From positions 1,792,001-1,856,000 of the forward strand of contig OY968769.1 of NCBI GenBank assembly GCA_963695345.1: a stretch of DNA of 64,000 nt. Reading direction: 5' to 3'. Shown one piece after another: positions 25,800 through 44,156 of the stretch. The notes under the pieces are model-generated. The model was not told where the DNA came from and did not search any database. It worked only from the letters and a program-made list of their open reading frames with translations. The stretch's first letter is position 1. The number at the start of each line of letters is the position of its first letter. Source of the DNA: an uncultured Methanomassiliicoccales archaeon (GTDB lineage Archaea > Thermoplasmatota > Thermoplasmata > Methanomassiliicoccales > UBA472). Both the position numbers and the translations under genes were made by a program.

Positions 25800-26080
25800 T
25801 ACGCTCCCTCCTCCTTCATGGTGATGGCTTTGACCGGACACTGGTTGGCGCAGATGCCGCAGCCTTTGCAGTGTGAGTACTTGAAGCCCTTCATCTGCTC
25901 GTCCTCGACGATGACACTGTTGTCCGGGCAGTAGATCCAGCAGAAAAGGCAGTTGGTGCATTTCGCCTTGTCTACCTCCGGTCTCTTCGACCTCCAGTCA
26001 CCCGTCTTATACTCTCTGGCGTTGCCTGCCTCGCATATCATCGCGCCAGGTTCCAGTTCCTTTGAGCTCTTCTCCGCCAT
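25799..26080 (-). CDS. porD: Pyruvate:ferredoxin oxidoreductase delta subunit
   Basis: TGDWRS, CTNCLFCWIYCP, CKGCGICANQCP. Confidence 0.93.
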   Translation of the reverse strand: MAEKSSKELEPGAMICEAGNAREYKTGDWRSKRPEVDKAKCTNCLFCWIYCPDNSVIVEDEQMKGFKYSHCKGCGICANQCPVKAITMKEEGA

Positions 26081-26081
26081 T

Positions 26082-26643
26082 TCAGTCCACCTCCTCGAAT
26101 GCCCTTTCGACGGCCTTGACGTTCTTCGCGATGACCTCTTCCTTGAACTTGCCAGTGAATTTCGCCCTAAGCTCTTCCGTGACAGTCTTCAGGCTTACTA
26201 CATTCGAGACCTTGACCAGCGCACCCAACATGGCGGTGTTGGTCATCGGCCTCCCGAGCTCATCCAGCGCTATCTTGGTGGCGTTGACCGCATGGATGTC
26301 CGCTTCGCTGCCTATCTTCATCTTGAGCTTGTCCTTTCCGTCTGGATAGTTCGCTATGACAGATCCCGTTCTGCTTGAGCCCATCCAGCACGTTGACGAC
26401 GCCGATCAGCGTGGGGTCGATCACGACCACCACATCGGGATAGTAAACCTGACTATGAACAACGATCGGCTCTTCCGATATGCGGGCGAACGCCCTGATG
26501 GGTGCCCCCATCCTTTCCGGACCGAACTCCGGGAACGCTTTGATATACTTGCCCTCCTTCAGTGCGGCTCCAGCCAAGATCTCGTTTGCTGTAACGACAC
26601 CTTGTCCGCCCCTGCCGTGCCATCGTATCTCAATGGTTTTCAC
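26082..26643 (-). CDS. porG: Pyruvate:ferredoxin oxidoreductase gamma subunit (frameshift near 26375)
   Basis: [27 protein letters not shown]. Confidence 0.92.
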
Positions 26644-27141
26644 TTCAACGCCCTCGCAGGATACTGAAAAATAACATGATATTTAATCATTTCACTTATT
26701 CAATTACGAAAGACAATAAATTCATTGCGAATAATGGTATAAATGCTCATTGTTGACCTAACAATTTCGAAAATAGCTCTGAATAGCGAAGTCACCCTTC
26801 GATTATCGAATATGAAATTATGGAATAATGTCACATGGCATGCAATGGCATAGCTTGGCCCATCTTGAATCTCGGGCGGAATCAGAAGAACCGCCTAGTC
26901 CTCCTCGGCGTTGAATTAATATTTCAACCTAACAATTCTTAGTGCAGAAGGTCGTTCCTGTCTCGATCGGCAGTTCGTCCAGCGTTGGTTCGGAGTTCCT
27001 ACCGAACCACGATTGTTTTTCTTACCAAAATAACAATGTTCTCGGAAAACTTAATAGCCATTGCGCTTATTGCGAACTGGCGAGCGGGACGGACATTCGG
27101 TCCCATGAGTCCAAATCCGTTCTTGAAAGGGGGACGAAACA

Positions 27142-29471
<2,330 letters not shown>

Positions 29472-29528
29472 GCGCTCCCCGATAAAACCCCTTCCTCAAT
29501 GTTTTAAGAAGAATAGTCTGCCAATGTT

Positions 29529-30335
29529 CTAGACATTGGTCTCGTCCTTCATGAACCTGGTGGTTATCTCGATCAATGGATGGTGTGAGCCATCGATGAT
29601 CTTGACATCGTCGAGGGTATGCAGGTCCCGTTCGTCGGCCGAGCGTTCCAGGCCGAGCTCGACATCGACGCTCGGTTCCAAGACGAAGGCAGTGAACTGC
29701 CTCACGCCCATCTTCTTCGAAGCCAACGCCCGGTGGTGTCCGTCCACCAGGATGTAATGGTCATGTTTCTGGACTACGATGATCGGCTCCACCAGTCCGC
29801 GCTTGATCTCCTCCATCCGCCCGAACAGCTCGTCGGCGTAGACCTCGTGCTGGGTCGGTCTGAGCTCCTCTATTGGGATCAGGCGCCTCTTGACCACGAT
29901 GGTGATATTGTGCTTGGATTCCAGGAAGTTCTTGATCATGTTGACCTTGTTCGGTGTCGCCCTTTCGATGTGCGAACGAACAATGTCAAGGTTCGAGATG
30001 ATTCCGATAAGAACGCCTTTCTCGTCGACCACCGGAACGTTCCTCAACCCATGCCGGAACAGGACACGCGCGGCGTCGTCCAGGTCCATCTGGGGGTTAA
30101 CGCTGACGGTGCCCTTCTTGATGATGTTGCGAACGAGCTCCTTCGGGCGGTTCGCGTTCCGGAGCAGTTCCTTGGCGGTAATGAACCCGATGAGGCGGCC
30201 ATTCTCGGTGACCGGCAGCCCGTGGAACTCGGTGGAGATGAGCTTAGCGGTCGTCTGGGCGACCGTATAACCACCAGGGATCTCGATGACGTCCCTGACC
30301 ATATAGTCCTCTACTCTGAGTTTTCGTTCTGCCAT
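29529..30335 (-). CDS. CBS-pair plus ParB/Srx-like domain protein
   Basis: Two CBS repeats followed by LRPTQ...EPIIV...LVDGHHR. Confidence 0.88.
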   Translation of the reverse strand: MAERKLRVEDYMVRDVIEIPGGYTVAQTTAKLISTEFHGLPVTENGRLIGFITAKELLRNANRPKELVRNIIKKGTVSVNPQMDLDDAARVLFRHGLRNVPVVDEKGVLIGIISNLDIVRSHIERATPNKVNMIKNFLESKHNITIVVKRRLIPIEELRPTQHEVYADELFGRMEEIKRGLVEPIIVVQKHDHYILVDGHHRALASKKMGVRQFTAFVLEPSVDVELGLERSADERDLHTLDDVKIIDGSHHPLIEITTRFMKDETNV

Positions 30336-30498
30336 GACATTACCATCCTTCTGCCTCAAGCAGTGCCTGCAAAGAATGATGGGTACAATAATAATCTTTT
30401 CCGGACCGGCATCAAATATTTGCCACTTTTGTCCATTCATCTAGACTGAGTCACCTCAAGCCATATATATGACTTATTTATTGTGGAGACCAGCATAA

Positions 30499-30574
30499 GC
30501 CCCGGTAGTGTAGCGGCCTATCATCCTAGCCTGTCGAGCTAGGGACTCGGGTCCGAATCCCGACCGGGGCGCCA
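30499..30574 (+). tRNA. tRNA-Asp (GTC)
   Basis: GCCCCGG...CCGGGGCGCCA cloverleaf, anticodon loop CTGTCGA, TATA-like sequence upstream. Confidence 0.95.
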
Positions 30575-30619
30575 TGCTCAATTTTATCGCCCTCATTCCT
30601 CTCAAACGGATTTTCCTGG

Positions 30620-30650
30620 AATTGGTATCAATTTCTATAATACCGTATTA
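30620..30650. promoter_or_regulatory. Two short palindromes in the promoter region of the CARF-HTH pair
   Basis: AATTG-GTAT-CAATT (30620-30633) and TAATAC-C-GTATTA (30638-30650). Confidence 0.35.
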
Positions 30651-30695
30651 ACCAACAAATAAACGAGGCCGTGATATTGTCTCGGTTCGATTGAT

Positions 30696-31334
30696 ATGGT
30701 CGTAATTCTAGGCACGCTCGGTCATCACCCGGAGACATTGATGCCCACGATCCGGTCCACGAGGTGCACCGAGGAGGTTGTGGTGTTCCACAGCGATCAT
30801 GAGGACTCCTTGAAAGCGGTGGATGAGATCAGGCGCACCTGCCAGATGATGGAGGTCGCCTTCTCCCCTCGTCTGATACCGGACGCCTTCGACCTGGTCT
30901 CGACGGCCATGGAGATACAGAGGGCGATTGAGGAGCTGCGGACGGCCAACAAGCAGATCGCCGTGTTCAATATCGCTGGCGGCACCAGGATCATGAGCGC
31001 CTCAGCCCTTCTGGTCTGCACCCTGGAGGGATTGAACGCGGTCTATGTCCATGATGATAGCCACAGGGAGATACCGCTGCCACTTCTTCAGATCAAATAT
31101 TCAAATATCCTCACCGACCAGGAAAAGGTGATCCTCCGTTTCCTGCTGGAAAGGAAAGGGAAGGAGGTGACCCAGCGGGACCTGGCGAGCGCGCTGCACT
31201 TGCACAAGGCCACCGTCAACCACCACGTCCAACAGCTTATCGAGAAGGGGGCGGTGCACCTGGAGGAAAAGGCTGGGGACAAGAGGGTCAAGCTCATCAG
31301 GATCGAGGACAGCATGGCGTTGCTGCTCAGGTGA
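30696..31334 (+). CDS. CARF (Csa3-like) domain plus MarR-type wHTH regulator
   Basis: GTLGHHP and FNIAGGTR CARF motifs; TQRDLASALHLHKATVNHHVQQL helix-turn-helix. Confidence 0.8.
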   Translation: MVVILGTLGHHPETLMPTIRSTRCTEEVVVFHSDHEDSLKAVDEIRRTCQMMEVAFSPRLIPDAFDLVSTAMEIQRAIEELRTANKQIAVFNIAGGTRIMSASALLVCTLEGLNAVYVHDDSHREIPLPLLQIKYSNILTDQEKVILRFLLERKGKEVTQRDLASALHLHKATVNHHVQQLIEKGAVHLEEKAGDKRVKLIRIEDSMALLLR

Positions 31335-31338
31335 GCAA

Positions 31339-31962
31339 ATGAGAACACTGGTCTGTACCTATGGCTATCGTCAGGACAAGATAGTCAAGGCGATGAGGAC
31401 CATAGACCACAACGAGCTGGTGCTGGTGACCGGGGAGAAGAACACTGCCCGACCAGAATACTCGAAGATATTGGAGCTTGCCCGGAGCTTAGGCACTCCT
31501 GTGGAGACGGTGGTAGTGGACATTTTCGATTTCATCTCGTGTTTCTCCAGCATCGACGAGATCGTGCGCCAGAGGCAGGATGCCAATCACACGGTCGCGA
31601 TCAACATCAGCGGTGGGCTTTCCCTGCTCTCCGACGCCGCGATGATGGCGGCGCTCAATAATGGTTGCGAATCATACTATGTCGACGATGTGGTCAAGAG
31701 GATGCCGACAACGCTCCCAATATTGAAGGTGAATATTGGCGAAAGGCTTACCTCGATGCAGAAGGAGACCTTGCTGGACCTTAAGGAGGGTTCTCCGGTG
31801 GTCGTCTCAAGTACAATTGGGGATGCGCCTGAACCGCGTTTGCGGGCCTTGCGCGAGCTCAAAGAAATGGGGATGATATCCGTGGACCTGACAGGCGGAC
31901 AGGCGAGGATGTCCCTCACCCCGAACGGCCTTAGCATACGAGATTGGCTCCGGCGTCGTTGA
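31339..31962 (+). CDS. Divergent CARF domain plus wHTH protein
   Basis: CTYGY, INISGG, C-terminal LRELKEMGMI...LTPNG winged helix. Confidence 0.7.
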   Translation: MRTLVCTYGYRQDKIVKAMRTIDHNELVLVTGEKNTARPEYSKILELARSLGTPVETVVVDIFDFISCFSSIDEIVRQRQDANHTVAINISGGLSLLSDAAMMAALNNGCESYYVDDVVKRMPTTLPILKVNIGERLTSMQKETLLDLKEGSPVVVSSTIGDAPEPRLRALRELKEMGMISVDLTGGQARMSLTPNGLSIRDWLRRR

Positions 31963-33051
31963 TCAAGGGGACCCGCGCATCATGGGCAGGACGTTGTCCA
32001 TGACGTTGCGCACCGCGGCGTCCGCCTCCCTGACTCCGATCTCGGTGCGGTGGTAGATGCATGGGTCTTGCAGGTGGTGGAGCCCTTCGGGGTCGTCGGG
32101 ATAGGATCCGGAGACCACACACGTCGCAATCGCCCAGCTTCGTCTGGTCGCGCTCAGGTTGTAGCCTCCTCCGCCGACCACCACGTATCGTCCCCCGCAT
32201 AGATGGTGCGCCAGGTGATGGGTGGTTTCGGCAATACGCTCGAAAGCCTTGGTGGTCAGACCGAGACGGACCATGTCGTCGTCCCGGTGAGCATCGGTTC
32301 CGAACAGGTGAAGGATGAAATCCGGCTTGTATTCCCTCAGGGCCTCGGTGATTACCTTCCGGAAAGCCGGGACGTAAACCTCATCCTGGGTGCCGCATGG
32401 CAAAGGGACGTTGATGCAATAGCCACATCCTTCCCCCTTACCTATTTCCTTGACCGATCCGGTGGAAGGGAAGAACCCGTTCCCGAAGCGGTGGAATGAG
32501 ATGGTGAGGACCTTTTCCTCATAGAAGATCGATTGGGTCCCGTCTCCGTGATGCCCGTCCGTGTCCACCACTGCGATCCTTTTGAAGCCGTAATCCTGCT
32601 GCAGCATCCTGACAGCGATCGCCACATCATTGAAGATGGAGAACCCGGCAGCGCCATCCGGCCGTGCGTGATGGAACCCTCCGGAAGGGTTCATGGCGTG
32701 CTCATAGCGTCCTTCTGCAACCGCTCTGCACGCATCAAGCGTTCCACCGACGCAGGACAGCGCTCCCTCGAACAATGTTGGAGTGGCTGGAGTATCGCCG
32801 TCATCCAGGTAGCCATGGCCTCGGGCGCATTCCGCTTTGACCCTATCGATATACTCCGGACTGTGGACGCGCTCTATCTGGTAGATGTCCGCAAGCTTCG
32901 GTTCGACCATGACCAGGTTCTCACCGAAAACGCCCATATCCTGCAACGTTTCTTTGATCAGGCGGTACCTGATCGGTTGCGAGGGATGATCTGGTCCGAA
33001 CTGATAGTTGAGCATGCCGTCGCTGTAGTAAAAGGCAGTCGGATTGGGCAT
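31963..33051 (-). CDS. Histone deacetylase/AcuC family protein
   Basis: HP...R, GGFHHA, GFSIFND, DTDGHHGDG, GGGGY. Confidence 0.92.
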   Translation of the reverse strand: MPNPTAFYYSDGMLNYQFGPDHPSQPIRYRLIKETLQDMGVFGENLVMVEPKLADIYQIERVHSPEYIDRVKAECARGHGYLDDGDTPATPTLFEGALSCVGGTLDACRAVAEGRYEHAMNPSGGFHHARPDGAAGFSIFNDVAIAVRMLQQDYGFKRIAVVDTDGHHGDGTQSIFYEEKVLTISFHRFGNGFFPSTGSVKEIGKGEGCGYCINVPLPCGTQDEVYVPAFRKVITEALREYKPDFILHLFGTDAHRDDDMVRLGLTTKAFERIAETTHHLAHHLCGGRYVVVGGGGYNLSATRRSWAIATCVVSGSYPDDPEGLHHLQDPCIYHRTEIGVREADAAVRNVMDNVLPMMRGSP

Positions 33052-33263
33052 CTTCGGACCTCAGGGGTCATCTACTCTTCTTAATCAATAAATTTTGCTT
33101 CGATACAACGTTATGAAGGCAATGATGGCGACCTGTAATCGAAAGGAAAGTACCTAAAAGCCGCGAACGGTCTAAGGTTGTCAAAAACACAATCTAGGTG
33201 TGCAGTTCCTCCAGTGGGAAGTCCCAGGGAAAGATTCTTGAGGGAGGTCTGATTGCTACATTC

Positions 33264-33605
33264 ATGCGTTGCCTACTGCGGGGGAAGATCCACCGCGCTA
33301 CAGTCACCGAGACGAACACCGAGTATATCGGTAGCATCGTCATCGATCAGGACCTGCTACGGGCGGCTGACATATGGCCAGGGGAGAGACTGCTTATCTC
33401 CGATATCAATAATGCAGCCCGTTTTGAGACCTACGCGGTAGAGGGTAAGGCAGGGTCCGGGCAGATAATGGTCAATGGCGCGGCGGCCAAGTTGGTCAAC
33501 AAGGGCGACAAGATCATCATCATGGCGTTCGAGTACACCGATGTACCGGTGGAACCAAAGACCATTCTGGTCGATGAGAAGAACCGCTATGTCAAGCGGC
33601 TCTAG
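33264..33605 (+). CDS. panD: Pyruvoyl-dependent aspartate 1-decarboxylase
   Basis: KIHRATVT, YIG/SIVID self-cleavage site, RFETY, NGAAA. Confidence 0.94.
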   Translation: MRCLLRGKIHRATVTETNTEYIGSIVIDQDLLRAADIWPGERLLISDINNAARFETYAVEGKAGSGQIMVNGAAAKLVNKGDKIIIMAFEYTDVPVEPKTILVDEKNRYVKRL

Positions 33606-33641
33606 GCAATATTTTCTATTCGTTCCTGCCTTGCGCATCCG

Positions 33642-34058
33642 ATGAGATTAAGATTGTACACCGATGGCGGGTCTAGGGGAAACCCCGGTCCTTCGGCTTA
33701 CGCATTCATCCTAATGTCCGAGGACGGCAAGACGATCCAAGAGGGCTCCCACTTCCTCGGCAAGGCCACCAACAACGAGGCGGAATATAGCGGTCTGCTC
33801 GCTGGACTGGCCGCGGCCCGGGAGAAGGGCGCCGATGAGATCGAGGTGACCATGGACAGTGAACTGGTGGTCAGGCAGATGCAGGGCATCTATGCGGTCA
33901 AGTCCCCCAACCTCATGCCTCTCTACAAAGAGGCCAGGTTGAGATTCTCAAGTTTCAATAAACCCGTGATCCTTCACGCCCCTAGGGAACACCCCGTCAT
34001 CACGAAGGCAGATGCGCTGCTGAACGGGGAGCTCGATCGGTGTACAAAGCGCAAATGA
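33642..34058 (+). CDS. rnhA: Ribonuclease HI family protein
   Basis: YTDGGSRGNPG, TNNEAEY, DSELVVRQ. Confidence 0.9.
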   Translation: MRLRLYTDGGSRGNPGPSAYAFILMSEDGKTIQEGSHFLGKATNNEAEYSGLLAGLAAAREKGADEIEVTMDSELVVRQMQGIYAVKSPNLMPLYKEARLRFSSFNKPVILHAPREHPVITKADALLNGELDRCTKRK

Positions 34059-34118
34059 ACGCCATTCGCGGCAACAGTTATTTCTAACTGACAAAACCAA
34101 GCTCTATCGGTGATAGAA

Positions 34119-34316
34119 ATGGTTCAGAAAGTGATAGAGATAGTTGGGATATCGAAGAAAGGATTCGATGAGGCTGCCAAGAACGCGATAGAAACTGCTG
34201 CGAAAACCGTGAGGAACATACAATGGGCCCGCGTTTCGGAATTCGAATGTAAGTGCGGGGAAGGAGAGATCGTTGATTTCAGAGCTCTTGTGAGGATATA
34301 CTTCGACGTTGATTGA
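34119..34316 (+). CDS. Dodecin family protein
   Basis: KVIEIVGIS...AAKNAIETAAKTVRNIQWARV. Confidence 0.88.
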   Translation: MVQKVIEIVGISKKGFDEAAKNAIETAAKTVRNIQWARVSEFECKCGEGEIVDFRALVRIYFDVD

Positions 34317-34513
34317 AGGACTTCTATCGTGATCAATTTGATCTTGGCCAACGTAGGTCATGGATCCTAGAAGGAGACCAACTGCTATTGGACTTCAGAT
34401 AGCATGGGCGTTTTTCTTGTTCATGCCATGCAATCACCATTCGGTTCGCTGGATCAACGAAATTTGAACGAATAGAAGAATAACCGGGAATATTTTGTTA
34501 TAGTAATAAAATA

Positions 34514-34521
34514 TTTATATA
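34514..34521 (+). promoter_or_regulatory. TATA box for candidate sRNA copy 1
   Basis: TTTATATA after an A-rich BRE-like run, 20 nt before the stem-opening GGCG; no + strand CDS follows. Confidence 0.6.
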
Positions 34522-34540
34522 AGATGGCGAATCGTCGGTT

Positions 34541-34623
34541 TGGCGTGCGGGGCCCGGTGACTCAACTGTCCTCCTAAGATCAGTTCTTCAATACTCCCCC
34601 AATAAATCCGGTCCCCGGCGCCA
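34541..34623 (+). ncRNA. Candidate structured sRNA, copy 1
   Basis: 5' TGGCGTGCGGGGCCCGG pairs with 3' CCGGTCCCCGGCGCCA; inner hairpin AACTG-TCCTCCTAAGAT-CAGTT; paralog at 55827-55904. Confidence 0.72.
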
Positions 34624-34627
34624 AGAT

Positions 34628-35875
34628 TCATTGTCGCAGAAGTTCGACCAGGTCATTGTTCTTTACCAATGACTGTTCTCCTGAGCTCATGTCCCGCAGA
34701 GTGACCGAACCTGCTTCCTCTTCCTTTTCGCCAACAATGATGGCATAACGGGCACCGATCGAATCGGCATATTTGAAATTCTTGGCCAGGTTGCGCCTCA
34801 TGAGATCTATGTCGGCGACGATTCCGGATTCCCTCAGGTTAGCCACGATTGTGAATGCCCGTACACGCATCTTTTCATTGACCGGGATGACGTAGACCTG
34901 AATGCCGGTCTTCGGGGATATCATTCCCTCGCGTTGTAAGGCAAGAAGTATCCTGTCGAATCCGATCCCAAATCCACTGGAGAATACCTTTTCCCCTCCG
35001 AAAAGCTCTGACAGCGAATAGGAACCGCCACCGCAGACCTGTTTCTCCGCACCTAGCGAGGGGGCGTCTGCTTCGAACACCATACCAGTATAGTAGGCTA
35101 GTCCCCTCACCACGCCCAGGTCGACAGAGACGTTGGTGAATCCATAGGCGTTCAGGACCGCAAAGACCTGTTCAAGATGTTCCTTGGCCTCACCCGAGAA
35201 CCCGTCAAGGACCGACGTCGGGCCCGTTATCTGAGTGGTCCTGATGACGTCTTCAGCGGTCTCTTCGCTCATACCTGCCTCTTTCATGATCGGACGGGCT
35301 TCATCGTAGAGCTTCTTATCCAATTTTTGAAGGATCTTCAGCATGTCATCGGGTTTGACGCCAGCCGACGCTAGCTTCGAACGCAATATCCCGATGTGAC
35401 CGACCCTGATCTTGTAGTCCTTCAATCCGGTCCGCTTGATTATTGAAGCGGCCAAACCAATGACCTCAGCGTCAGATTCCGGAGTGGGGGCCCCGATCAG
35501 TTCGGCCCCGAACTGAAAGAACTCACGATAGCGGCCGGATTGGGGCCTTTCGTACCGGAAGCACTGCCCGAAGTAGAACATCTTGAGCGGCCGTGGATAG
35601 GTGGTAAGATCGCTCAAGAAGAAACGGATGACCGGTGCGGTGAGCTCAGGCCTCAGGCAGATCTCGCGATCGCCCTTGTCCTTGAAAGCGTACATCTCAT
35701 CGACGATGCCCGGGCCGGATTTGATAACAAAAAGGTCAGTTGTTTCGAAGATCGGGGTGGAGACCTCGCGGAATCCATGGGTCCTGGCGACATCCCTCAT
35801 GAGCGATTCGAAGTACCTCCTCGTTTCCATCTCCTCGGGGCCGAAGTCCCTCGTCCCGCGCGGCCGCTGAATCAT
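34628..35875 (-). CDS. hisS: Histidine-tRNA ligase
   Basis: RPRGTRD, LRPELT, FRYERPQSGRYREF, VRGLAYYTG, GFGIGFDR. Confidence 0.97.
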   Translation of the reverse strand: MIQRPRGTRDFGPEEMETRRYFESLMRDVARTHGFREVSTPIFETTDLFVIKSGPGIVDEMYAFKDKGDREICLRPELTAPVIRFFLSDLTTYPRPLKMFYFGQCFRYERPQSGRYREFFQFGAELIGAPTPESDAEVIGLAASIIKRTGLKDYKIRVGHIGILRSKLASAGVKPDDMLKILQKLDKKLYDEARPIMKEAGMSEETAEDVIRTTQITGPTSVLDGFSGEAKEHLEQVFAVLNAYGFTNVSVDLGVVRGLAYYTGMVFEADAPSLGAEKQVCGGGSYSLSELFGGEKVFSSGFGIGFDRILLALQREGMISPKTGIQVYVIPVNEKMRVRAFTIVANLRESGIVADIDLMRRNLAKNFKYADSIGARYAIIVGEKEEEAGSVTLRDMSSGEQSLVKNNDLVELLRQ

Positions 35876-35960
35876 GCCCGAGCAATATTGTGGACGGTAT
35901 TAACTCTTTCTTTGCTCAGTAGGCGCGGCCTCAGCTGACTGACTCATGTTACAGCAATAA

Positions 35961-35976
35961 TGAAAAGAAAAAAAAC
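35961..35976 (-). terminator. Oligo-U terminator after the aquaporin gene
   Basis: Long A run on + (U run on -) downstream of the stop codon. Confidence 0.5.
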
Positions 35977-36022
35977 AATTGGAAATTGTTTGGTGAAAGG
36001 GTTTGTGGCTTCGGTTGGCTGC

Positions 36023-36715
36023 TTAAGCTGCCTTCTTTGCCGGGGTCGCCATCCACTTGAAGACCCAGGAACCGATGACTCCTCCGATGATCGGCGCGAC
36101 CACGAATAGCCATGCTTGTTCCAGTGCCTTGCCGCCAGCGAACAGTGCCGGGGACAGGTCCCTGATTGGGTTGATGCCAGCTCCGTCAAGGCCACCGGTG
36201 AATAGGATGATCGCACCGACGACGAGACCGATCGAGACTCCAGCCATCGCCTCGTTGCCCTTGTTTCCCAATGATCCAAGGATAACGATCTGCAGGATGA
36301 AGGCGCTCAACAGTTCAATTATGAAGACAGGTACCATTCCATAGCCTGTTGCCGTGTCCGGGTCTGTGTAGGACGTGGTTCCAAAGCTTCCAACGACCGA
36401 GTGTGCATCCATGTACACATAGTACAGGATTGCTGCACCGATGATACCGCCAATGATCTGCATGACGACATAGATGACCATGTCCTTGGTCTTCATGCCT
36501 CCAATTGACCAGACACCAATGGACACTGCCGGGTTGATGTGGCAACCGGATATTGGTCCGATCGTGTAGATCAGCGACATCACGATTATTCCGAAAGCTA
36601 GCGCCGGTACGACAAGGTTAATAGTATCGCCTAGGACCAAGCCAAAAAGCAATGATCCTACACCAACCATAACCAACAGCATACTGCCTATCAATTCTGC
36701 TACGTAGTTCTTCGT
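36023..36715 (-). CDS. MIP family channel (aquaporin Z-like)
   Basis: (T)KNYVAELIG, ISGCHINPAVS, second motif NPIRD, six hydrophobic segments; apparent ACG start after a G-rich RBS. Confidence 0.88.
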   Translation of the reverse strand, partial: TKNYVAELIGSMLLVMVGVGSLLFGLVLGDTINLVVPALAFGIIVMSLIYTIGPISGCHINPAVSIGVWSIGGMKTKDMVIYVVMQIIGGIIGAAILYYVYMDAHSVVGSFGTTSYTDPDTATGYGMVPVFIIELLSAFILQIVILGSLGNKGNEAMAGVSIGLVVGAIILFTGGLDGAGINPIRDLSPALFAGGKALEQAWLFVVAPIIGGVIGSWVFKWMATPAKKAA

Positions 36716-37094
36716 TGTCTTTCCCCCCTAATAAGATATTGGTTATAAAAATCTCAAAGAACATTTTAAAGGTTGTGGTCGGAGCGAACCTATTTTTTTG
36801 GTAGGAAACGACTTAACGGGTAGTTGGGCGGACAGCATACTCCCCCCTTTGCATTAATCGTTTAAGTTTAAATAATAGTGAAAGTTTTTTAGATTGAAGG
36901 TTAATCCATCCAGCAAATAAAAAGGAGTCGTCCGGTTCATATCTGGATGAATAGTGCTTCTGAATAAGCGCTCATAGGGTATTTTGTAAGGAGGTTTGTT
37001 AACATTCAAACCTGAGTTCGCAAGTTTACCTTATTGGCACGAATTGGCTAAGGAAGAAGGGACAGGTAAAGATGTCCCCTAGAAAAATGGTCGA

Positions 37095-37277
37095 TCACTC
37101 CTTCTTTTCCTCGCCGGGGGCGGGCTCAGCGACCTTTTCCTCAAAATAGGCCTTGATCTTCCCGCATTTCGGGCATTCGACAATGTGGACGAAGCGGTTG
37201 TTCTCCGGCTCGTCGAATGTATCGTTTATTTCCTTGTCGGTCAACTCATAGTTGCATTCGCACTTTATCGATTTCAT
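37095..37277 (-). CDS. Small zinc-ribbon protein
   Basis: IKCEC...ECPKCG, 60 aa. Confidence 0.6.
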   Translation of the reverse strand: MKSIKCECNYELTDKEINDTFDEPENNRFVHIVECPKCGKIKAYFEEKVAEPAPGEEKKE

Positions 37278-37692
37278 CAAAGCACCGATCGAATTCCCGA
37301 TGCTATTCATCAATATGTTTTCTTGGGTGAGGTGCGTCCTATCTGTGGATAACATCTTGTTCGGATGTGTTGGGGTTTCTAGTATTGATATGTAAAATCA
37401 GCTCGTCTGTTTGTTCATACTCAGTATGAACATTCTCCGGTGAACGGAGGTCGGGGAAGTGTTTGCTGGCGGCGCCGCTGTATTGCACATCGATGACATA
37501 TCTCGCGGTCCATGGCCCAATTGATGGCCTCGGGACCGTCGGGATGCCTTAGGTTTCTAAATCATGGTCTAGCGATTGCTCATGCCATGATGGTCAAAGG
37601 CGATGGCCACAGATTAATATTAGAAAACACATTTTGTTCTATTGTGGTCTGGCCAGGTCTAGGCTGGCCACTCCGTCAATGGGGGAAGAGAA

Positions 37693-38652
37693 GTGTCGAA
37701 CGTTTCGGACAAAAATGGGAGTTTCGCGATCGCTGTTGTTGTACTCATGGTCGTGCTGGTTGTGGTCCTTGCGATCGCCGCCGTGCTGTTCCTTCCGGTT
37801 AAGTCGGTCAACTTTGATGAATCAAGGAGCGTAACCTCGACGGCCGGTGTGAACAAATTGAGTCTCCGGCTGAGCGCCGATTTGGGAGAAGTTCAGGTCA
37901 CCTATGCTAACCTGAGCGGTCTGGCCCTCAGCCTGCATGTGACGGCAAAAGGCTCGGTCGGCTTTCTGATGGACCCCAATACGATATCCCTCGATTTCGT
38001 CCAGAGCACATCGGCCGACACCGCGTTGGTGAACGCCTCAGTGAATGTAAGGGACCGACTGCTAGGGGCCTCGAACCTCAACCTCCAATGCATCGTCCAG
38101 ATAGACGATTCAATGCGTTCCAAGCTGGATCTGTCGACATCCACCGGGAGTGTTCTGGTCAACAGTACCAATGCCAGTGCCTTCGATCAGATCAGCATGA
38201 GCGTCAAGACCGGAGCGGTCAATCTGAAGATAGCTTCCGGCGTATCCCTCTACGGCGACATCACCCTGTCCACGAACGTCGGCGCCTCCTTCCTTGATTG
38301 GACGGATCCATTGGTTATGGAAGACATCAAGGTCGTGTCTTCGACCAAGACCGGCGGTTTGGAAATGAACATCAATCAGACCGCTCCGATGGACCGGACG
38401 GTCATCTTGAACGGAACGACCGCCACGGGCGGTGTGTCCCTTAATATGGGCATCAGAGGAAACGTGAGCGCCTCCATCGAATCGGAGACCGGGCTGGGGG
38501 GAGTTCATGTTGGGAGCAGGACCGGGTTCAATGGGACGGATAACGCATTGAAATCAACCAACTATCCGTCCTCAGGCAACTTCGAGGTCACCCTAAAGAC
38601 GAACGTAGGCGGTGTCGATGTGAACGCCCTGAGCGTTCCCTCCAACGTCTGA
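37693..38652 (+). CDS. Membrane-anchored beta-repeat protein (DUF4097/adhesin-like)
   Basis: N-terminal transmembrane helix; repeated TxxGxV strands (TSTGSV, TNVGA, TKTGGL, TATGGV, TNVGGV). Confidence 0.72.
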   Translation: MSNVSDKNGSFAIAVVVLMVVLVVVLAIAAVLFLPVKSVNFDESRSVTSTAGVNKLSLRLSADLGEVQVTYANLSGLALSLHVTAKGSVGFLMDPNTISLDFVQSTSADTALVNASVNVRDRLLGASNLNLQCIVQIDDSMRSKLDLSTSTGSVLVNSTNASAFDQISMSVKTGAVNLKIASGVSLYGDITLSTNVGASFLDWTDPLVMEDIKVVSSTKTGGLEMNINQTAPMDRTVILNGTTATGGVSLNMGIRGNVSASIESETGLGGVHVGSRTGFNGTDNALKSTNYPSSGNFEVTLKTNVGGVDVNALSVPSNV

Positions 38653-38695
38653 GACAAAACCACTTCCGAATTTTCCAATGACGCGAGGATGAATC

Positions 38696-39283
38696 ATGGC
38701 ATTGACGATCCGCAGGATGGAGGAGAAACTGTTGCGAGGGGCCATAGAGGAACTGAAGGCACGTTATAGCGCCTATCCGAGTCAGCTCGATCCGAAGGAT
38801 GAGAAGGAGTCCAAGATGATCCAGCCAAGATCTCGCGTCTATGAGGCCCTGGTCAGGAAAAAGTTCGAGCTTGACCTACTGGACCGAAAATGGTATGTCG
38901 ACATCAATCCATTCCTGGGCGGAGGGCCGGAAGAACTGGACATGCACACACCGGACATGGTCGTCTTCCGTGACGGTCTGGTCATAGTCACAGAGACCAA
39001 ACAGATCAATGAGAAGTCGGAAGGCACCAAAATGGGCACCTTCTTCACCCAGGTCAAAGGTTACCGCGACTACTATGAGCAGAAGTTCGCGGAACCGGAC
39101 GTCAAGTTCATTTCCGTCCTGGTGACCAACAGCGACACCATCGTGAACTCTGGCTCCTACCAGTCGTTCAAAGGCATCGTCATCCTGTTCAACCCCGAGA
39201 ATTGGGAACAGGATGCCCTGAAGATGCTCGAGGAGGGCATCAGAGAGCTCGAAAGAACGGGCGGCCCGGTCCTGGTAAGGTAA
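38696..39283 (+). CDS. Hypothetical protein with PD-(D/E)xK nuclease-like motif
   Basis: TPDMVV...VTETK followed by QVKGY helix. Confidence 0.6.
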   Translation: MALTIRRMEEKLLRGAIEELKARYSAYPSQLDPKDEKESKMIQPRSRVYEALVRKKFELDLLDRKWYVDINPFLGGGPEELDMHTPDMVVFRDGLVIVTETKQINEKSEGTKMGTFFTQVKGYRDYYEQKFAEPDVKFISVLVTNSDTIVNSGSYQSFKGIVILFNPENWEQDALKMLEEGIRELERTGGPVLVR

Positions 39284-39328
39284 GCGGAACCATTTTTAGG
39301 CAAGTGCTCGCCTCTCTATTCGATCAAG

Positions 39329-40708
39329 ATGTATTTTGCCAAGGTGAAATCCGAAGGTCTGGCCCACTTATCATATCTTGTCGGATCGGGCAACGAGGCG
39401 TGCGTGATCGATCCCCGCCGTGATTGCGAAGAATACCTGCGGATCGCGATGGAGAAGGAGATGCGCATCCGTTACATTTTCGAAACCCACCGGAATGAGG
39501 ACTACGCGATCGGCTCGGTCGAACTGGCCAGCATCACCGGGGCGGAGATATTCCACGGGGGGGCGGTTCCTTTCAACTACGGCCGCAATCTGTACGACGG
39601 TCAGGAGTTCGCCCTGGGGAACATACGTATACAGGCGATCGCCACGCCTGGCCACACCATTGAGCACTACTGTTACTCGCTCACCGACCTTTCTTCCGGG
39701 GACGAACCGGTCATGGTCTTCACCGGTGATGCGCTATTCGCCGGTGATGTGGGGCGTACCGACCTTTCCGGACATGAACGCAGGGAAGAGCTCTCTGGAA
39801 TGCTGTACGACTCCCTGTTCGATAAGGTCCTCCCGTTGGGAATGGGCGTGATCGTCCACCCCGCACATGGCGCTGGTTCTGTGTGCGGAGGGAACATCTC
39901 CGATCGAGACGTGACCTCCATCGGCATCGAGCTCGAGGTCAATCCGATGCTTTCGTTGACAAGAGAGCAGTTCGTAGAGGCCAAGATGAAGGAGAAGATC
40001 GAGCGCCCCCCCTATTTCACCAAGATGGAGGAGATCAACCTGAACGGTCCGCCGTTGATTGGACGACTGCCCTGTCCCAGGCCCCTTCCGGTCGCGGATT
40101 TCCGTTCGGCCATGAAAGGGAACATGACCGTTCTCGATGTCAGGATGCCGCACTCGTTCGGAGGGGCCCACATATCCGGTTCCCTGAGCCTATGGCTGGA
40201 CGGCCTCTCCCAGTATGGAGGATATCTTCTGGACTATGAAAAACCGATATTGCTGGTGGTTGAGAACCGGTCCCAATTGGAGGAAGTGGTGAGATCCCTG
40301 GTCCGGATAGGGTTCGACGACATACCCGGGTACCTGAGGGTGGGAATCGACACATGGTATCGGGCCGGGGCTCCGGTGGCGATGACCCAAATGACCACTC
40401 CCGCACAGGTCAAGGGATGGATGGAATCAGGGATGGATATGACGCTGGTTGACGTCAGAAACATCCACGAGCTGGGTTCCGGAGTGATCGCCAACTCCAA
40501 GCTCATACACCTTGGCTCGGTCGAGTCCCGTTCGGACGAGATCCCTCACGACAAGCCGGTCGTCATATACTGCTCATCTGGTTATCGGGGAGGGACAGGC
40601 GCAAGTCTGCTGCTCCGGAAAGGCTACTCCAATGTATGGAACATGCTCGGCGGCACAAATGCCTGGAAAGCCCTGGGATATCCGATGGTCGAACCGCCTC
40701 AGGACTGA
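39329..40708 (+). CDS. MBL-fold hydrolase with two rhodanese domains
   Basis: ETHRNED, TPGHT, FTGDALF, HPAHGAGS; C-terminal YCSSGYR. Confidence 0.9.
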   Translation: MYFAKVKSEGLAHLSYLVGSGNEACVIDPRRDCEEYLRIAMEKEMRIRYIFETHRNEDYAIGSVELASITGAEIFHGGAVPFNYGRNLYDGQEFALGNIRIQAIATPGHTIEHYCYSLTDLSSGDEPVMVFTGDALFAGDVGRTDLSGHERREELSGMLYDSLFDKVLPLGMGVIVHPAHGAGSVCGGNISDRDVTSIGIELEVNPMLSLTREQFVEAKMKEKIERPPYFTKMEEINLNGPPLIGRLPCPRPLPVADFRSAMKGNMTVLDVRMPHSFGGAHISGSLSLWLDGLSQYGGYLLDYEKPILLVVENRSQLEEVVRSLVRIGFDDIPGYLRVGIDTWYRAGAPVAMTQMTTPAQVKGWMESGMDMTLVDVRNIHELGSGVIANSKLIHLGSVESRSDEIPHDKPVVIYCSSGYRGGTGASLLLRKGYSNVWNMLGGTNAWKALGYPMVEPPQD

Positions 40709-40895
40709 ATGAACTTCAAGTAACTGACGCCCTCCAACTTTTCCAGTTGATCGAGGATGTTGTTGACACGGGATGCTTCCCCATCGCTCATGAGCAGGTT
40801 CATGCAGCGGTCCCCTCCGACGTGATTATGGATGTGGGTCTTGATCATTTCCTGGTTCTTGTGATAGCTCTCATCGATGGAGCGGTGTTGGTATG
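40699..40895 (-). pseudogene. 3' remnant of a NikR-like regulator
   Basis: ...IKTHIHNHVGGDRCMNLLMSDG... resembles the NikR metal-binding domain; no N-terminal ribbon-helix-helix part. Confidence 0.5.
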
Positions 40896-40896
40896 T

Positions 40897-41408
40897 ATGG
40901 CCGGAGGATTCAACGTCGACCTTTTCGGCTACCTTTCGGCTCCATCCTTGCTGTTTCGGGGGACGGCCTCCTATTCGTCCTGATACTGGCGGCGGTGCTG
41001 GGTTTCGCATTGGTGTTCTACAAGGAGCTGCTGCATATGACCTTCGACGAGCCCGGTGCCCGACTTGCCGGCGTTCCGGTCTCGCAGATGGATTTGGTGT
41101 TCAATATCGTGGTGGCCCTGACGGTTGTGATCTCCATCAAGATCGTCGGTTCTCTGCTGGTGTCATCCCTGCACATCATCCCGGCGGCTTTCGCGATGCA
41201 ACTGTCAAGATCATTCAAGGGAACAATGGTGGAGGGGCGTCATCTTCAGCATCGTTGCGCTCATCGATGGCTTTCTGGTGTCGTTCTTCTACGATGTGGC
41301 CACTGGCGGTGCGATCGTTTTGATCAGCGTGGTGATCTTCGCGCTATACGCCCTTCTGAGACGCTTCTTCTCCAGCGCGAAGACCTCGACAGACGTGGGA
41401 ACCTGTGA
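40897..41408 (+). pseudogene. 3' remnant of a ZnuB-type metal ABC permease
   Basis: GGFNVDLFGYLFGSILAV, YKELLHMTFDE, IKIVGSLLVSSL, YDVATGGAIV across shifted frames; N-terminal half absent. Confidence 0.72.
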
Positions 41409-41652
41409 CGACCGATCACGATCGGCTAGGTTCGAACTAGTCGATCGCAATCAAACCATTTTTGTAGCGTTTTATTAGATCATAATGCAAAATATTTCCA
41501 AATCTATGAAACAAAATTGCAATTAATTGCATAATAATAGTAATAAATTATCAATATCAACATGGATAAGCTCCCTTGATGTAACATTGTTGCGGAAAAA
41601 TACGATAATCATTATATATCCTTCAATACTAGTCATAATACGGGGAAAATAA

Positions 41653-42771
41653 ATGGGCCATGAAGAGCTATTTCCACCATGGGACATGAACTGGGCGGGA
41701 AACGCCTCAAAGAGATTCGCAAGCCCCTTCGTTGACAAGCCACACGACAGGATCGATGTCGATGCGTTCATGTCGTCGCATGCTGCCATAGCCTGCGGCC
41801 AGACTATCAAGGATTTCTACGAGAAACCGGAATTGGGAATCCACTGCGTGGGTTATGCGAACGAGATGTATGACCTGCTGCCGGTGACAAACTGGTTCTT
41901 CTCACTGCCATGGGTCACCGAACTCGGCCTGAAGCTCGAGTACAGGGACACCCAGCCGCCGGTCTCCACGGGGCCGATCTACTCGGAACCGGGCGAAATC
42001 GACCAAATGCACGTTCCTGACAAGCAGGAGCTTGAGAAAGGCTGGACGCTGCCTTTGTACAAAAGGATCTATGATTATGTTGAGAAGAACATGCCGCAGA
42101 CCCTGCTCCCTATCTCGTACGGATTCGATCTCTGCGGGGGAGCGGCCGAATTGGTGGGGGTGGAGAACTTCATAATGTGGACCTTCACGGAGCCCGAGGC
42201 GGCCATGAAGTTGGTCAGGAACTACACCATGACCGCAGTCAACGGCGCTGAGGCCTTGGCCGATGCCTATGGAACGGCCATGCTGGTGGTCGGGTCAGTG
42301 CTCGGCAACAACGATATCTTCTCCGATGGGGCGGTCAAGAAGTATTCCGCCGACAACATGAGGATGTTCGTCGACCAGGCTTTCAGAAAGGGGGCAGGGC
42401 CGCAGGTGTTCTATCACCTGTGCGGTAACCATCAGACCGACTACAAGGTCTTCAAGGACACGCTGGTATGGTCCCCTCTCAGCGTCACGCACATCGGATA
42501 TGATGGAAGGAACCCGTTCCCGTCCGCCAAGCTGAAAAGCGAGTTCGAGAGCGTCTCTACCTGCATGGGCTCGGTCGATACCAAGCTGATGATCAACCCG
42601 AACCAGAAGGCCGTCTATGACCAGGCGAAGGACCAGTTACTCGCCGGCCGCGACTCAAAGAAGGGATACATTCTAGGCACGTCCTGCGAGACGCCCCCCC
42701 ATACCCTGCCTGGAAACATCAGAGCACTGGTGAAAGCCGCCCAGGACTTCGGTACCTACGGAACATGGTGA
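41653..42771 (+). CDS. Uroporphyrinogen decarboxylase family methyltransferase (MtaA-like methylcobamide:CoM MT2)
   Basis: Zinc motif YHLCG plus GYILGTSCETP; MGSVD. Confidence 0.75.
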   Translation: MGHEELFPPWDMNWAGNASKRFASPFVDKPHDRIDVDAFMSSHAAIACGQTIKDFYEKPELGIHCVGYANEMYDLLPVTNWFFSLPWVTELGLKLEYRDTQPPVSTGPIYSEPGEIDQMHVPDKQELEKGWTLPLYKRIYDYVEKNMPQTLLPISYGFDLCGGAAELVGVENFIMWTFTEPEAAMKLVRNYTMTAVNGAEALADAYGTAMLVVGSVLGNNDIFSDGAVKKYSADNMRMFVDQAFRKGAGPQVFYHLCGNHQTDYKVFKDTLVWSPLSVTHIGYDGRNPFPSAKLKSEFESVSTCMGSVDTKLMINPNQKAVYDQAKDQLLAGRDSKKGYILGTSCETPPHTLPGNIRALVKAAQDFGTYGTW

Positions 42772-42772
42772 G

Positions 42773-43238
42773 GTGACAAAGATGGAAGTCAGAACCGACG
42801 CGATCAGGGAATTGCTGGGTAGGAGAGGGATAAGGGAAGCGGACGTCGAGGACACGGTCAAGACCGCCGAATCATCTGGCGTGAAGGTTCAAGAAGGGCA
42901 ACGACAGCCTCGGAAAGAAGAGGATCGGGGAAGTGACCTTCTACGCATTATATGACATGCAGAGCGGGATCCTGAAGAAGTCCGCCACGGTCAAGACCGC
43001 ATATTCGCACCGCATGGAATTGGGTGATGTACAGAGCATCGGAGACCGGACCGACTGGGTCTGCGCTCACTGCAACGAGGCGGTCCATCAGGGCCAAGTG
43101 GACGTCACCTATTTGACGGTCAGCCGGTCGGCCCCGGCATTGGTCTGCCCGAAGTGCAAGGTGACTATGGTCGAGGAATACCTGGCCGTAAAGACCATGG
43201 CGGCGGCCGAGGGACTTTTCGAGAAGAAGCGGGCCTGA
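42773..43238 (+). CDS. DVU_1557-like CxxC zinc-ribbon protein (frameshift near 42890)
   Basis: TFY...AYSHRM, WVCAHC, LVCPKC...VEE. Confidence 0.65.
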
Positions 43239-43295
43239 GCCAAACAAGGTTTGGCCGTGATGAACGGCCAATTGATGATCCAAGAGGCCGGCCGC

Positions 43296-43607
43296 TCAGC
43301 GGTTTCGGGTCTTCCCTACGCTGGTGTTGTAGTTGCTAACGATGTTGTTGACGTAGGTCGAGAGGTTCCTTTCCCCCGTGCGGTTCGCCACCCACTTTGG
43401 TTCTGCGATCAGTGGGAACTCGGCGTCGCAATGAATGCAGCGGGCATAACTGCAGTTGGTACCTGACTTCGGGCAGCCGACGCAGGCAATGGCCCTGGAC
43501 TGGAAAAGGCTGAAGCTCTTTCCGCATTTGGGGCAGACGATCTGCTTTGTTGTCCTCAACAACTGCGGAGTGACCCCTCCGCGGGCCATTTCCGGGGTCA
43601 GAACCAT
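43296..43607 (-). CDS. Cys-rich hypothetical protein
   Basis: CPKC, CVGC, C..ARCIHC; GAGG RBS upstream. Confidence 0.7.
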   Translation of the reverse strand: MVLTPEMARGGVTPQLLRTTKQIVCPKCGKSFSLFQSRAIACVGCPKSGTNCSYARCIHCDAEFPLIAEPKWVANRTGERNLSTYVNNIVSNYNTSVGKTRNR

Positions 43608-44156
43608 TTGGAATCCTCATTCAACAAACCCAATCTCGCGTATTTAATGTCTGGCAACATCCGATTCGGTGTCCAGTCCATGCTTTGGACCCCTGGTTTC
43701 CTTCTCGCCGTCAATTAACGGTCCAACGATGCATGGCCTTGATGGTGATCGTGTCGATTTTTCTGTCACCAGAGCCTCATGCGTCATTAGGCTGTTGAAG
43801 GCGGATGGCATTTTAACATCATTCTCACTTGCCAGGCTGAAGTCACGGTCTCCGACGCAAGTATGCCGATCCCTCGTCCGCCTCAAACACCAACGGCACC
43901 AGGCCGAAGACCAGCGCTCGCTTACGTAACCGCTCAGAAAATGAACGATCTGGACCGCGTCGATTCTCGATAGCGATCATCATCTGGGCCATAGGGTTGA
44001 CCATTGCACGGGGCCTCGGCAAAGAGTTATCGGAGGCTGAACACATCGTGGTGCGTGCATCCCGTACGGTCAATGTTGTTCGCTTTGACCCGCCGAAGGT
44101 TGACCTCAGACAATCTGGACTCCGAATCAGAGAACCCGCTTGAGGAATGGATACAC

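Follow-up and report, generated by a model that had tools for sequence, protein, structure and literature searches.

A family of structured small RNA genes with a conserved C-rich loop, found beside cca and hisS in Methanomassiliicoccales

Methanomassiliicoccales are methylotrophic methanogens that inhabit wetlands, digesters and guts. The stretch of DNA analysed here (the window, 64,000 nucleotides (nt) of contig OY968769.1) belongs to an uncultured member of this order, whose genome (G000) consists of one contig of 2.56 Mb. The window contains two elements of about 80 nt, one at 34541-34623 on the forward strand beside hisS (histidyl-tRNA synthetase; copy 1) and one at 55827-55904 on the reverse strand beside cca (CCA-adding enzyme; copy 2). 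The original prediction, made from the letters of the sequence, had regarded them as sibling small RNAs (sRNAs) whose loop is complementary to the Shine-Dalgarno (SD) sequence. The locus therefore raises the questions of whether these are real RNA genes, how far the family to which they belong extends, and what such RNAs might do. The data presented below allow us to state with high confidence that the family consists of real, independently transcribed structured RNA genes; its mode of action is discussed in more guarded terms.

Two RNA genes and their family

Reading of both sites bore out the predicted positions and strands of the two elements. Their 36-nt cores differ at four positions and are therefore 32/36 identical, as had been claimed; their flanks are indeed unrelated, and a TATA box is present 5' of each copy, ending 19-22 nt before the first stem base. 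Copy 1 folds with an energy of -30.0 kcal/mol (z -3.20, equalled by 0/200 shuffles) and copy 2 with -28.1 kcal/mol (z -3.44, equalled by 2/200 shuffles), and the opposite strands of copies 1 and 2 (z -1.38 and -0.52, respectively) fold no better than shuffles. The outer stems pair as predicted, with a single pyrimidine-U mismatch in each (C.U in copy 1, U.U in copy 2). The inner stem with a compensatory G-C to U-A swap is also real as far as the window copies are concerned, but this stem of 5-6 base pairs (bp) is confined to the genus, and what the family keeps is a 3-bp CUY/RAG helix. In the whole 2.56-Mb genome, blastn matched each copy only to itself and to its sibling (26 nt, 96%, E ~9e-6), and a covariance-model scan gave only two matches, copy 2 with 91.7 bits and copy 1 with 71.8 bits, the third candidate having E 7. 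The parts of the two RNAs, referred to throughout the text, are as follows.

34514-34521 (+): TATA box TTTATATA of copy 1, read from the sequence; AT peak of the family 0.87-1.00 at -28 to -24 (99 members)
34541-34623 (+): copy 1, the hisS-linked paralog ('type B'); covariance-model match of 71.8 bits, E 4.4e-13; fold z -3.20; orthologs in the same slot
34542-34557 (+): closing stem of copy 1, 5' strand; from the fold and from family covariation at 15/17 pairs
34569-34575 (+): UCCUCCU word of copy 1, the complement of AGGAGGA; 2.0 bits per column, unpaired probability 0.64-0.92 (58 distinct sequences)
34594-34600 (+): second C-rich single-stranded word of copy 1, CUCCCCC, from reading and fold; aligns with CCCCACC of the cca-linked type
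34608-34622 (+): closing stem of copy 1, 3' strand; from the fold and from family covariation
55927-55934 (-): TATA box TTTTATAT of copy 2, read from the sequence; AT peak of the family
55827-55904 (-): copy 2, the cca-linked paralog ('type A') and prototype of the family; covariance-model match of 91.7 bits, E 8.2e-18; fold z -3.44
55887-55903 (-): 17-bp closing stem of copy 2, 5' strand; from the fold and from family covariation
55871-55877 (-): UCCUCCU word of copy 2, read from the sequence; invariant in the family
55846-55852 (-): CCCCACC word of copy 2; 1.26-2.0 bits per column, unpaired probability 0.92-0.96
55828-55844 (-): closing stem of copy 2, 3' strand; from the fold and from family covariation

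A DNA search of 40 relatives and the genome itself matched copy 2 in 36 of these 41 genomes at E<=1, with many full-length matches in several families; in the same genomes, full-length matches to copy 1 were found in the genus only. A covariance model (R1) was built from an alignment of 26 copies (A1) and searched across the order, as the original prediction had recommended, and 71 of 151 genomes matched at the cut-off of E<=0.001 (31 genomes with one copy, 39 with two and 1 with three). With the window genome left out, the matching genomes are distributed among the families of the order as f1 35/46, f2 1/1, f3 4/4, f4 0/1, f5 10/10, f6 20/24 and f7 0/64; the genomes scanned are mostly metagenome-assembled and related to each other, so that these counts are not independent samples, and the R1 E-values are rough. 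The hisS-linked type B was found in families f1 and f6. A scan of the class gave matches in 28/151 genomes; outside the order these fall in f10 (15/15), f13 (10/10) and f30 (2/2), always with one copy per genome, and there was no match in the other families sampled outside the order.

The same picture emerged from an exact 21-letter loop pattern, which was found in 68 stretches when searched over 185,579 species (one genome each). As many as 64 of them belong to records titled Methanomassiliicoccales/-aceae/-coccus, Thermoplasmata/-ota, Methanobacteriota, Euryarchaeota and, in one case, 'Methanomicrobia archaeon'; two more come from a 'metagenome' chromosome, and two are bacterial. R1 matches 66/68 of these stretches, and the two that fail are the bacterial ones, as expected of chance matches. 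R1 finds the family cleanly and, judging from its matches, the family extends across Methanomassiliicoccales and, within the class Thermoplasmata, to some sister lineages. Departures from the common form include a shortened RNA in genome G029, which lacks GGUGGCUCAAC and retains both C-rich words; in family f7, which has small genomes, only a promoter precedes cca in 3/3 genomes inspected.

The closing stem was evaluated in an alignment (A3) of 95 R1 matches, corresponding to 80 distinct sequences. It consists of 17 pairs, 15 of which have changes on both sides; in A3, which is fitted to the model and hence favours the structure, 95.8% of the cells are paired, and 0/500 shuffles reach any of five measures. 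As a control, sliding the partner by 1-3 columns lowered pairing to 27-49%. The independent MAFFT alignment A1, with its 26 sequences, agrees, with 94.1% of cells paired and 7 double-change pairs. G-U pairs are common in the stem, up to 23/80 at one pair, and settle the strand, because on the other strand they would read as A.C mismatches; the choice of strand is also backed by the fold z-scores of the two window copies.

The closing stem encloses a mostly unpaired loop of about 45 nt. The only general helix in it is the 3-bp CUY/RAG helix around UCCUCCU (90% paired, one double change), which is almost invariant, so that covariation neither proves nor disproves it; the minimum free energy folds of the 80 distinct sequences have no other common inner structure. 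Two conserved blocks, separated by a U-rich tract, were analysed in 58 distinct sequences. Block 1, GGUGRCUCAAC-UYUCCUCCUAAG, is near-invariant, and its U-CCUCC-U columns carry 2.0 bits with a mean unpaired probability of 0.64-0.92; block 2, AAUCCCCACC, carries 1.26-2.0 bits with an unpaired probability of 0.92-0.96. The claim that UCCUCCU is invariant and complementary to AGGAGGA was thus found to apply to the family and not only to the window copies, and the word is also predicted to be unpaired. In addition, the hisS-linked members of f6 have a second UCCUCC immediately 5' of GAAUCCCCACC, and 30/71 cca-linked RNAs carry a further C-rich word within the 20 nt that follow the stem.

Promoters, neighbouring genes and further RNAs with the same module

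The genomic context was studied in 101 distinct RNA sequences with their flanks, 99 of which had enough upstream sequence for promoter analysis. A TATA-like hexamer starting between -36 and -22 is present in 95/99, and the AT fraction rises to 0.87-1.00 at -28 to -24 relative to model position 1, which is the canonical archaeal distance for transcription starting at the first stem bases. Together with the covariation of the closing stem, this agrees with the view that the siblings are structured RNA genes, each with its own promoter.

The genes next to the window copies are cca, a gene for a B12-binding protein, hisS and an RNase HI gene, and the arrangement holds for 100/101 distinct RNAs, the remaining one being located at a contig end and therefore without context. 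Type A RNAs have cca directly downstream on the same strand in 71/71 distinct cca-linked sequences. Type B RNAs are preceded by the RNase HI gene on the same strand and have hisS downstream and convergent in 29/29 distinct sequences. The linkage to cca is also present in 10/10 loci fetched from outside the order, with cca proteins that share only 35-42% identity with that of the window; on this ground the window copies are ancient paralogs and not the result of a recent duplication. The features surrounding the two copies are listed below.

34628-35875 (-): hisS (histidyl-tRNA synthetase), convergent with copy 1; Pfam tRNA-synt_His 1.5e-56; stop codon 4 nt from the 3' end of the RNA
55795-55800 (-): oligo-T run T6, candidate terminator of copy 2, 27 nt past the stem; read from the sequence
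55779-55794 (-): AT-rich box AACATAAAACATTAAG between copy 2 and cca, candidate cca promoter; kept in the genus, AT peak in 68 loci
54428-55753 (-): cca (class I CCA-adding enzyme), same strand as copy 2 and directly downstream; Pfam tRNA_NucTransf2 1.3e-38, CAA_C, NTP_transf_2

The gap between RNA and cca measures 48-144 nt (median 82). At 68 loci an AT peak of 0.82-0.90 is located at -33 to -27 from the assigned cca start (the starts being crudely assigned), and an SD-like 4-mer is present at only 14/68 cca starts; cca therefore looks leaderless or short-leadered, with a promoter of its own, and is probably not simply a downstream cistron of the RNA. In the window, GAGGAGGG lies just 5' of the cca ATG, too close for a normal SD. 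As to the 3' side of the RNAs, a T5 run within 60 nt past the RNA was found in 15/101 and a T4 run in 41/101; T runs being uncommon, termination is not obvious and some read-through is possible. Type B RNAs end at a distance of 0-10 nt from the hisS stop codon, and their tails must therefore overlap with the end of the hisS mRNA.

An open reading frame (ORF) of 85 amino acids (34104-34361, reverse strand) lies between the RNase HI gene and copy 1 and is oriented away from the latter. In the genus, tblastn located it next to type B RNAs at 38-49% identity, and weak matches were obtained at three f6 loci (31-36% identity). It belongs to no Pfam or NCBIfam family and had no usable protein-atlas match, and is best described as a putative gene.

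The two copies had been described as a two-copy family, and in this respect the prediction has to be amended: at least two further conserved RNAs in the genome carry the GGCUCA...UCCUCCUAAG module. The genome contains six occurrences of the string TCCTCCTAAG. Five of them, including copies 1 and 2, are intergenic hairpin-like loci, and one site resembles the antisense of an ordinary ribosome-binding site. Two of the other loci (types C and D) are kept in relatives.

G000:C1:2072309-2072391 (-): type C, with its own TATA box and a composite closing stem of about 19 bp followed by UUUUCU; contains GGCUCACCCCC
G000:C1:2468439-2468559 (+): type D; reads CCGGUGGCUCACCGCUCCUAUGCGAUCCUCUCCUCCUAAGAAAG within a longer conserved block
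2524314-2524414 (-): GC-rich intergenic hairpin CGCGGCCGCCGG...CCGGCGGGCGCG, with CUUUCCUCCUAAGAAA and GGCUCA in reversed order

Type C is present in 18/41 relatives (families f1 and f3); in it a 6-bp hairpin displays UCCUCCUAA, after which comes AUUCCACC, and an Fe-ADH_2-type (lipid-pathway-type) dehydrogenase gene is nearby in 11/12 loci. Type D was found in 12/41 relatives, including every other genome of the genus (7/7, with 89-95% identity). Its conserved block of about 150 nt holds CCGGUGGCUCACCGCUCCUAUGCGAUCCUCUCCUCCUAAGAAAGUCCGC, has a covarying hairpin GGUAGAGGYC...GACCYC upstream, and lies immediately upstream of an ORF of 228 amino acids without Pfam family; type D may be a larger structured RNA in its own right, having the module in common with the others. 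The third hairpin is present in 2/41 genomes, its own included. None of the three loci has an Rfam match at E<=1. The shared module can be written as GGCUCA(A/C)C, 0-16 nt, UYUCCUCCUAAG(AA), and comparison of these sequences indicates that at least four conserved RNAs of this genome, each of a different build, make use of it.

Possible modes of action

The mode of action that we put forward, tentatively, is that of trans-acting sRNAs using C-rich, anti-SD-like seeds. The 17-bp closing stem would hold open the loop of about 45 nt and so present unpaired C-rich words, namely UCCUCCU on the 3-bp mini-hairpin, CCCCACC and, in some members, the second UCCUCC or the C-rich 3' tail. These words would pair in trans with G-rich, SD-like stretches in the minority of mRNAs that have a strong SD, and pairing could either block binding of the 30S subunit by competition or alter mRNA stability; the internal U-tract may serve as an Sm-protein site. 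The 3' end of the 16S rRNA is GGAUCACCUCCU, and its anti-SD word is contained in UCCUCCU. GGAGG is present in the -18 to -3 interval of 6.8% of 1549 crudely assigned gene starts, compared with 1.6% in the control, with a peak at -12, and a limited set of SD-led genes therefore exists. The seed seen in sRNAs directed against ribosome-binding sites is present here as well: the word complementary to AGGAGGA is invariant and predicted to be unpaired.

Several observations weigh against this mechanism. The RNAs have a fixed place beside cca (71/71) or hisS (29/29), a position which a free-standing trans regulator does not need. The two blocks, of 23 nt and 12 nt, hardly vary even where the cca protein encoded next to them drops to 36-41% identity, and they are far longer than a seed requires. 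One f1 genus (g2, genome G008) has a cca-linked RNA with UCCCCUUUU in place of UCCUCCU. The genome contains no long stretch complementary to the loop; for the reverse complement of a 22-mer, the best match apart from the copies themselves has 4-6 mismatches, and RNAduplex gave no outliers against 987 crude 'GGAGG plus start codon' sites, many of which are false starts. Duplex energies of the conserved blocks with an 11.5-kb stretch containing the 16S gene were no better than those of shuffled motifs. Nor does SD use separate carriers of the RNA from RNA-free genomes. On the basis of about 110-130 crude genes per genome, GGAGG was found in the SD and control windows, respectively, at 4.9%/3.3% in G050 and 8.5%/0.9% in G054 (both RNA-free f7 genomes), and at 11.8%/1.8% in G014, 9.5%/0% in G187 and 6.1%/0.8% in G000 (carriers). 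Finally, the only two metatranscriptome contig sets found, compared with window positions 26001-46000, cover, for example, 35988-36714 and not 34005-34671, where copy 1 lies, and are uninformative either way.

As to the 16S region (around G000:C1:639745, reverse strand), it should be noted that several kb downstream of the 16S 3' end appear unlike a 23S gene, and that the duplex matches lie in protein-like sequence; the rRNA genes may be unlinked in G000.

A second reading, which we consider somewhat doubtful, is that the RNA is a protein- or ribosome-directed mimic (decoy, sponge or cofactor), whose invariant loop is read by a conserved factor and not by mRNAs; it could imitate either the 16S 3' tail, for a factor that binds this tail, or tRNA elements, for enzymes acting on the ends of tRNAs, for example the CCA-adding enzyme encoded beside it or the histidyl-tRNA synthetase (HisRS). 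This would agree with the near-invariance of the 23-nt and 12-nt blocks across the class while the sequence of the stem drifts and covaries, and with the recurrence of the GGCUCA...UCCUCCUAAG module in at least four differently built RNAs, as expected of a shared binding module. In types C and D the sequence is GGCUCACC(N)CUCCUA, which is similar to GGAUCACCUCCUA at the end of the 16S rRNA, and the linkage to cca outside the order (10/10 loci) points in the same direction. There are also local likenesses to tRNA, i.e. GUGGCUCAAC compared with U8-C16, CCUCCUAAG, which is identical to the anticodon arm of tRNA-Arg(CCU), and UUCGAAUCCCC compared with the T-loop and its stem. Against such a mimic stands the promoter-like AT peak that cca has of its own. 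The likeness to the tRNAs of the genome is not significant for two of three queries (p ~0.03, 0.15 and 0.25 against shuffles) and has its best parts limited to the genus, and a terminal CCA is not conserved, the last base being A, U, G or C. Moreover, the third paralog (type C) lies beside the lipid-pathway-type dehydrogenase gene, which shows that the genes next to these RNAs do not always encode tRNA enzymes.

A mimic would account for the extreme invariance of the loop and for the fixed synteny nearly as well as an anti-SD sRNA. In its most specific form, which appears unlikely, the RNAs would be class-wide mimics of the 16S tail (GG-UCACC...CCUCCUA) and/or of tRNA, engaging a core factor of ribosome or tRNA-end maturation, for example the adjacent CCA-adding enzyme or a protein binding the 16S tail, and would not regulate mRNAs at all; this would account for the 35 frozen loop nucleotides across the class, and for the fact that the genes never leave cca or hisS.

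The strict conservation of adjacency and orientation could alternatively mean that the elements act in cis, type A as a 5' leader of cca or through transcriptional interference with it, and type B as a convergent antisense RNA on the 3' end or 3' untranslated region of hisS. The short gap to cca (48-144 nt, median 82) would suit this proposal, as would the possible read-through where only 15/101 RNAs have a T5 run within 60 nt, and the transcript overlap implied by type B 3' ends located 0-10 nt from the hisS stop. We nevertheless regard it as quite improbable. The AT box of cca at -33 to -27 and the scarcity of SD-like 4-mers (only 14/68 starts) speak against a leader, and the strand which folds, as indicated by the G-U pairs, is the one opposite hisS. 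Furthermore, the same loop is kept in three contexts (upstream in sense orientation, convergent, and upstream of an unrelated gene), which argues for a shared function in trans.

That the element is a degenerate or unusual tRNA, or an RNA derived from tRNA-Arg(CCU) which still enters tRNA pathways, is very improbable. The idea is suggested by three co-linear short tRNA likenesses in copy 2, by a possible drawing of the loop, valid for the genus, in which the 7 nt CUCCUAA resemble an anticodon loop and sit on a stem of 6 bp, and by the tRNA enzymes encoded next to it. However, neither ARAGORN nor the Rfam tRNA model finds anything, even at E up to 10; a 17-bp terminal stem is at odds with a cloverleaf, and a normal tRNA-Arg(CCU) is present in the genome. 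The anticodon-like register and the UUCGAAU word are limited to the genus, and elsewhere the CUY/RAG helix is found and the word reads UUUGAAU, UGUUAUC, etc. Aligned to the 34 tRNAs found by ARAGORN, two of the three queries gave no significant likeness: the best local alignments, compared with 300 shuffles, had p 0.027 for copy 2 (to tRNA-Arg(UCG)), 0.153 for copy 1 and 0.247 for a type A RNA of another genus.

With regard to the tRNAs themselves, the 34 reported for G000 by ARAGORN in bacterial mode are clearly an undercount, and the 98-nt 'tRNA-?(Arg|Ser)(ccga)' at G000:C1:2430787-2430884 is probably an intron-containing tRNA. In the window ARAGORN reports only tRNA-Met and tRNA-Asp, and neither copy; these are ordinary tRNA-Met(CAU) and tRNA-Asp(GUC) genes at 9335-9412 (-) and 30499-30574 (+).

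Lastly, a miniature inverted-repeat transposable element or other selfish repeat, which the hairpin shape and the presence of more than one copy might recall, is practically excluded by the two covariance-model matches in 2.56 Mb (third E 7) and by the fixed orthologous positions across the order and beyond, as well as by unrelated flanks and compensatory changes in the stem.

Known RNAs and implications

Rfam 15, searched with the whole window at gathering score, returned two tRNAs elsewhere and nothing at either copy, in agreement with the original prediction, which had recognised no known archaeal family in the element. When 300 nt around copy 1 and 278 nt around copy 2 were searched at E up to 10, copy 1 gave two chance-level matches on the wrong strand (E 9 and 2.4) and copy 2 none.

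Several classes of RNA were considered and rejected. Archaeal H/ACA RNAs have a lower stem of about 9-10 bp, a pseudouridylation pocket, a K-turn or K-loop, and an ACA/ANA box directly 3' of the stem; here the stem is 17 bp long, there is no constant GA as in a K-turn (GGUGAC vs GGUGGC), the bases following the stem vary (A, U, G or C, and then tails without relation to each other), and there is no Rfam H/ACA match. Archaeal C/D box sRNAs have a C box RUGAUGA and a D box CUGA at their ends, and the only hint of one was a 13-bit, E 9 match to sR21, located on the strand opposite copy 1 and absent in copy 2. An Alu-like domain of signal recognition particle (SRP) RNA was considered because of GGUGGCUCA, but the SRP RNA of the genome is at G000:C1:62670-62979 and shows no likeness by eye. 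RNase P RNA was found elsewhere in the genome, and an encoded CCA end, as said above, is not conserved.

The original prediction had compared the RNAs with the bacterial cuckoo and LhrC RNAs; the analogy concerns the proposed mechanism, and this only; the defining features of those families are not found here. In Alphaproteobacteria, the CcsR or cuckoo RNAs (ar14, NfeR) expose the anti-SD word CCUCCUCCC in hairpin loops and consist of two hairpins, each with this 9-nt word, the CIN1 subgroup adjoining a DUF1127 gene; for them, competition with 30S subunits by display of such a word has been shown (PMC8034643). The two groups are alike in being sibling sRNAs which expose an anti-SD word, with several copies per genome and a conserved neighbourhood (PMC8034643). 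The present family is archaeal and displays its word on one 3-bp mini-hairpin in a 45-nt loop under a 17-bp stem; CCUCCUCCC is absent from both window copies, the neighbours are cca and hisS instead of DUF1127, and there is no Rfam match.

Within the archaea, loop 2 of sRNA154 and sRNA41 of Methanosarcina mazei have been proposed to mask ribosome-binding sites, and these intergenic sRNAs of a methanogen are the nearest precedent in the same domain for the mechanism proposed here (PMC5867862). No likeness in sequence or architecture to the present RNAs was seen, nor an Rfam match, and unlike the class-wide family described here they are confined to Methanosarcina and nitrogen-responsive.

In Firmicutes, RsaE/RoxS and LhrC carry several unpaired C-rich words which pair with G-rich ribosome-binding sites; they are strongly conserved, and LhrC occurs in sibling copies. 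These sRNAs have Rho-independent terminators and UCCC-type words; they are bacterial, differ in fold, and have no homology to the present family.

Two RNAs of the cell itself share words with the family. The 16S 3' tail GGAUCACCUCCU has CCUCCU(A) in common with it and, in types C and D, also GG-UCACC (GGCUCACC...CUCCUA), whereas the family members are separate genes of about 80 nt without other likeness to rRNA, and are no more complementary to the 16S region than shuffles are. In tRNA-Arg(CCU) the anticodon loop and its flanks are identical to CCUCCUAAG and the T-arm is like UUCGAAUCCCC, but the family has no cloverleaf, is not detected by tRNA finders, and its likeness to the tRNAs of the genome is not significant for two of the three queries.

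These RNAs therefore make up a new family whose functional kind is known in broad terms, with an architecture and a conservation unusual for archaeal sRNAs. If the anti-SD reading is right, the family would resemble the cuckoo, LhrC, RsaE and Methanosarcina sRNAs in its action, and by our comparison it is a member of none of them.

To our knowledge, very few archaeal sRNAs are conserved past the genus level, and none has been described for Methanomassiliicoccales. A full-text search, with subscription journals and supplements outside its reach, found no sRNA literature for the order, and a search for archaeal C-rich anti-SD small RNAs gave nothing relevant among the matches listed. Against this background stands a family with 1-3 copies per genome throughout the order and beyond, textbook covariation, a canonical promoter, and a frozen loop with an anti-SD word, which merits an Rfam entry under either reading. 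If the RNAs are translation regulators, no other riboregulator of ribosome-binding sites known to us in archaea would be as widely conserved, and they would offer a handle on why strong SDs are kept by only a minority of genes in genomes that are largely leaderless. If, instead, they are mimics tied to cca and hisS, they would point to a new layer of control over tRNA-end or ribosome maturation.

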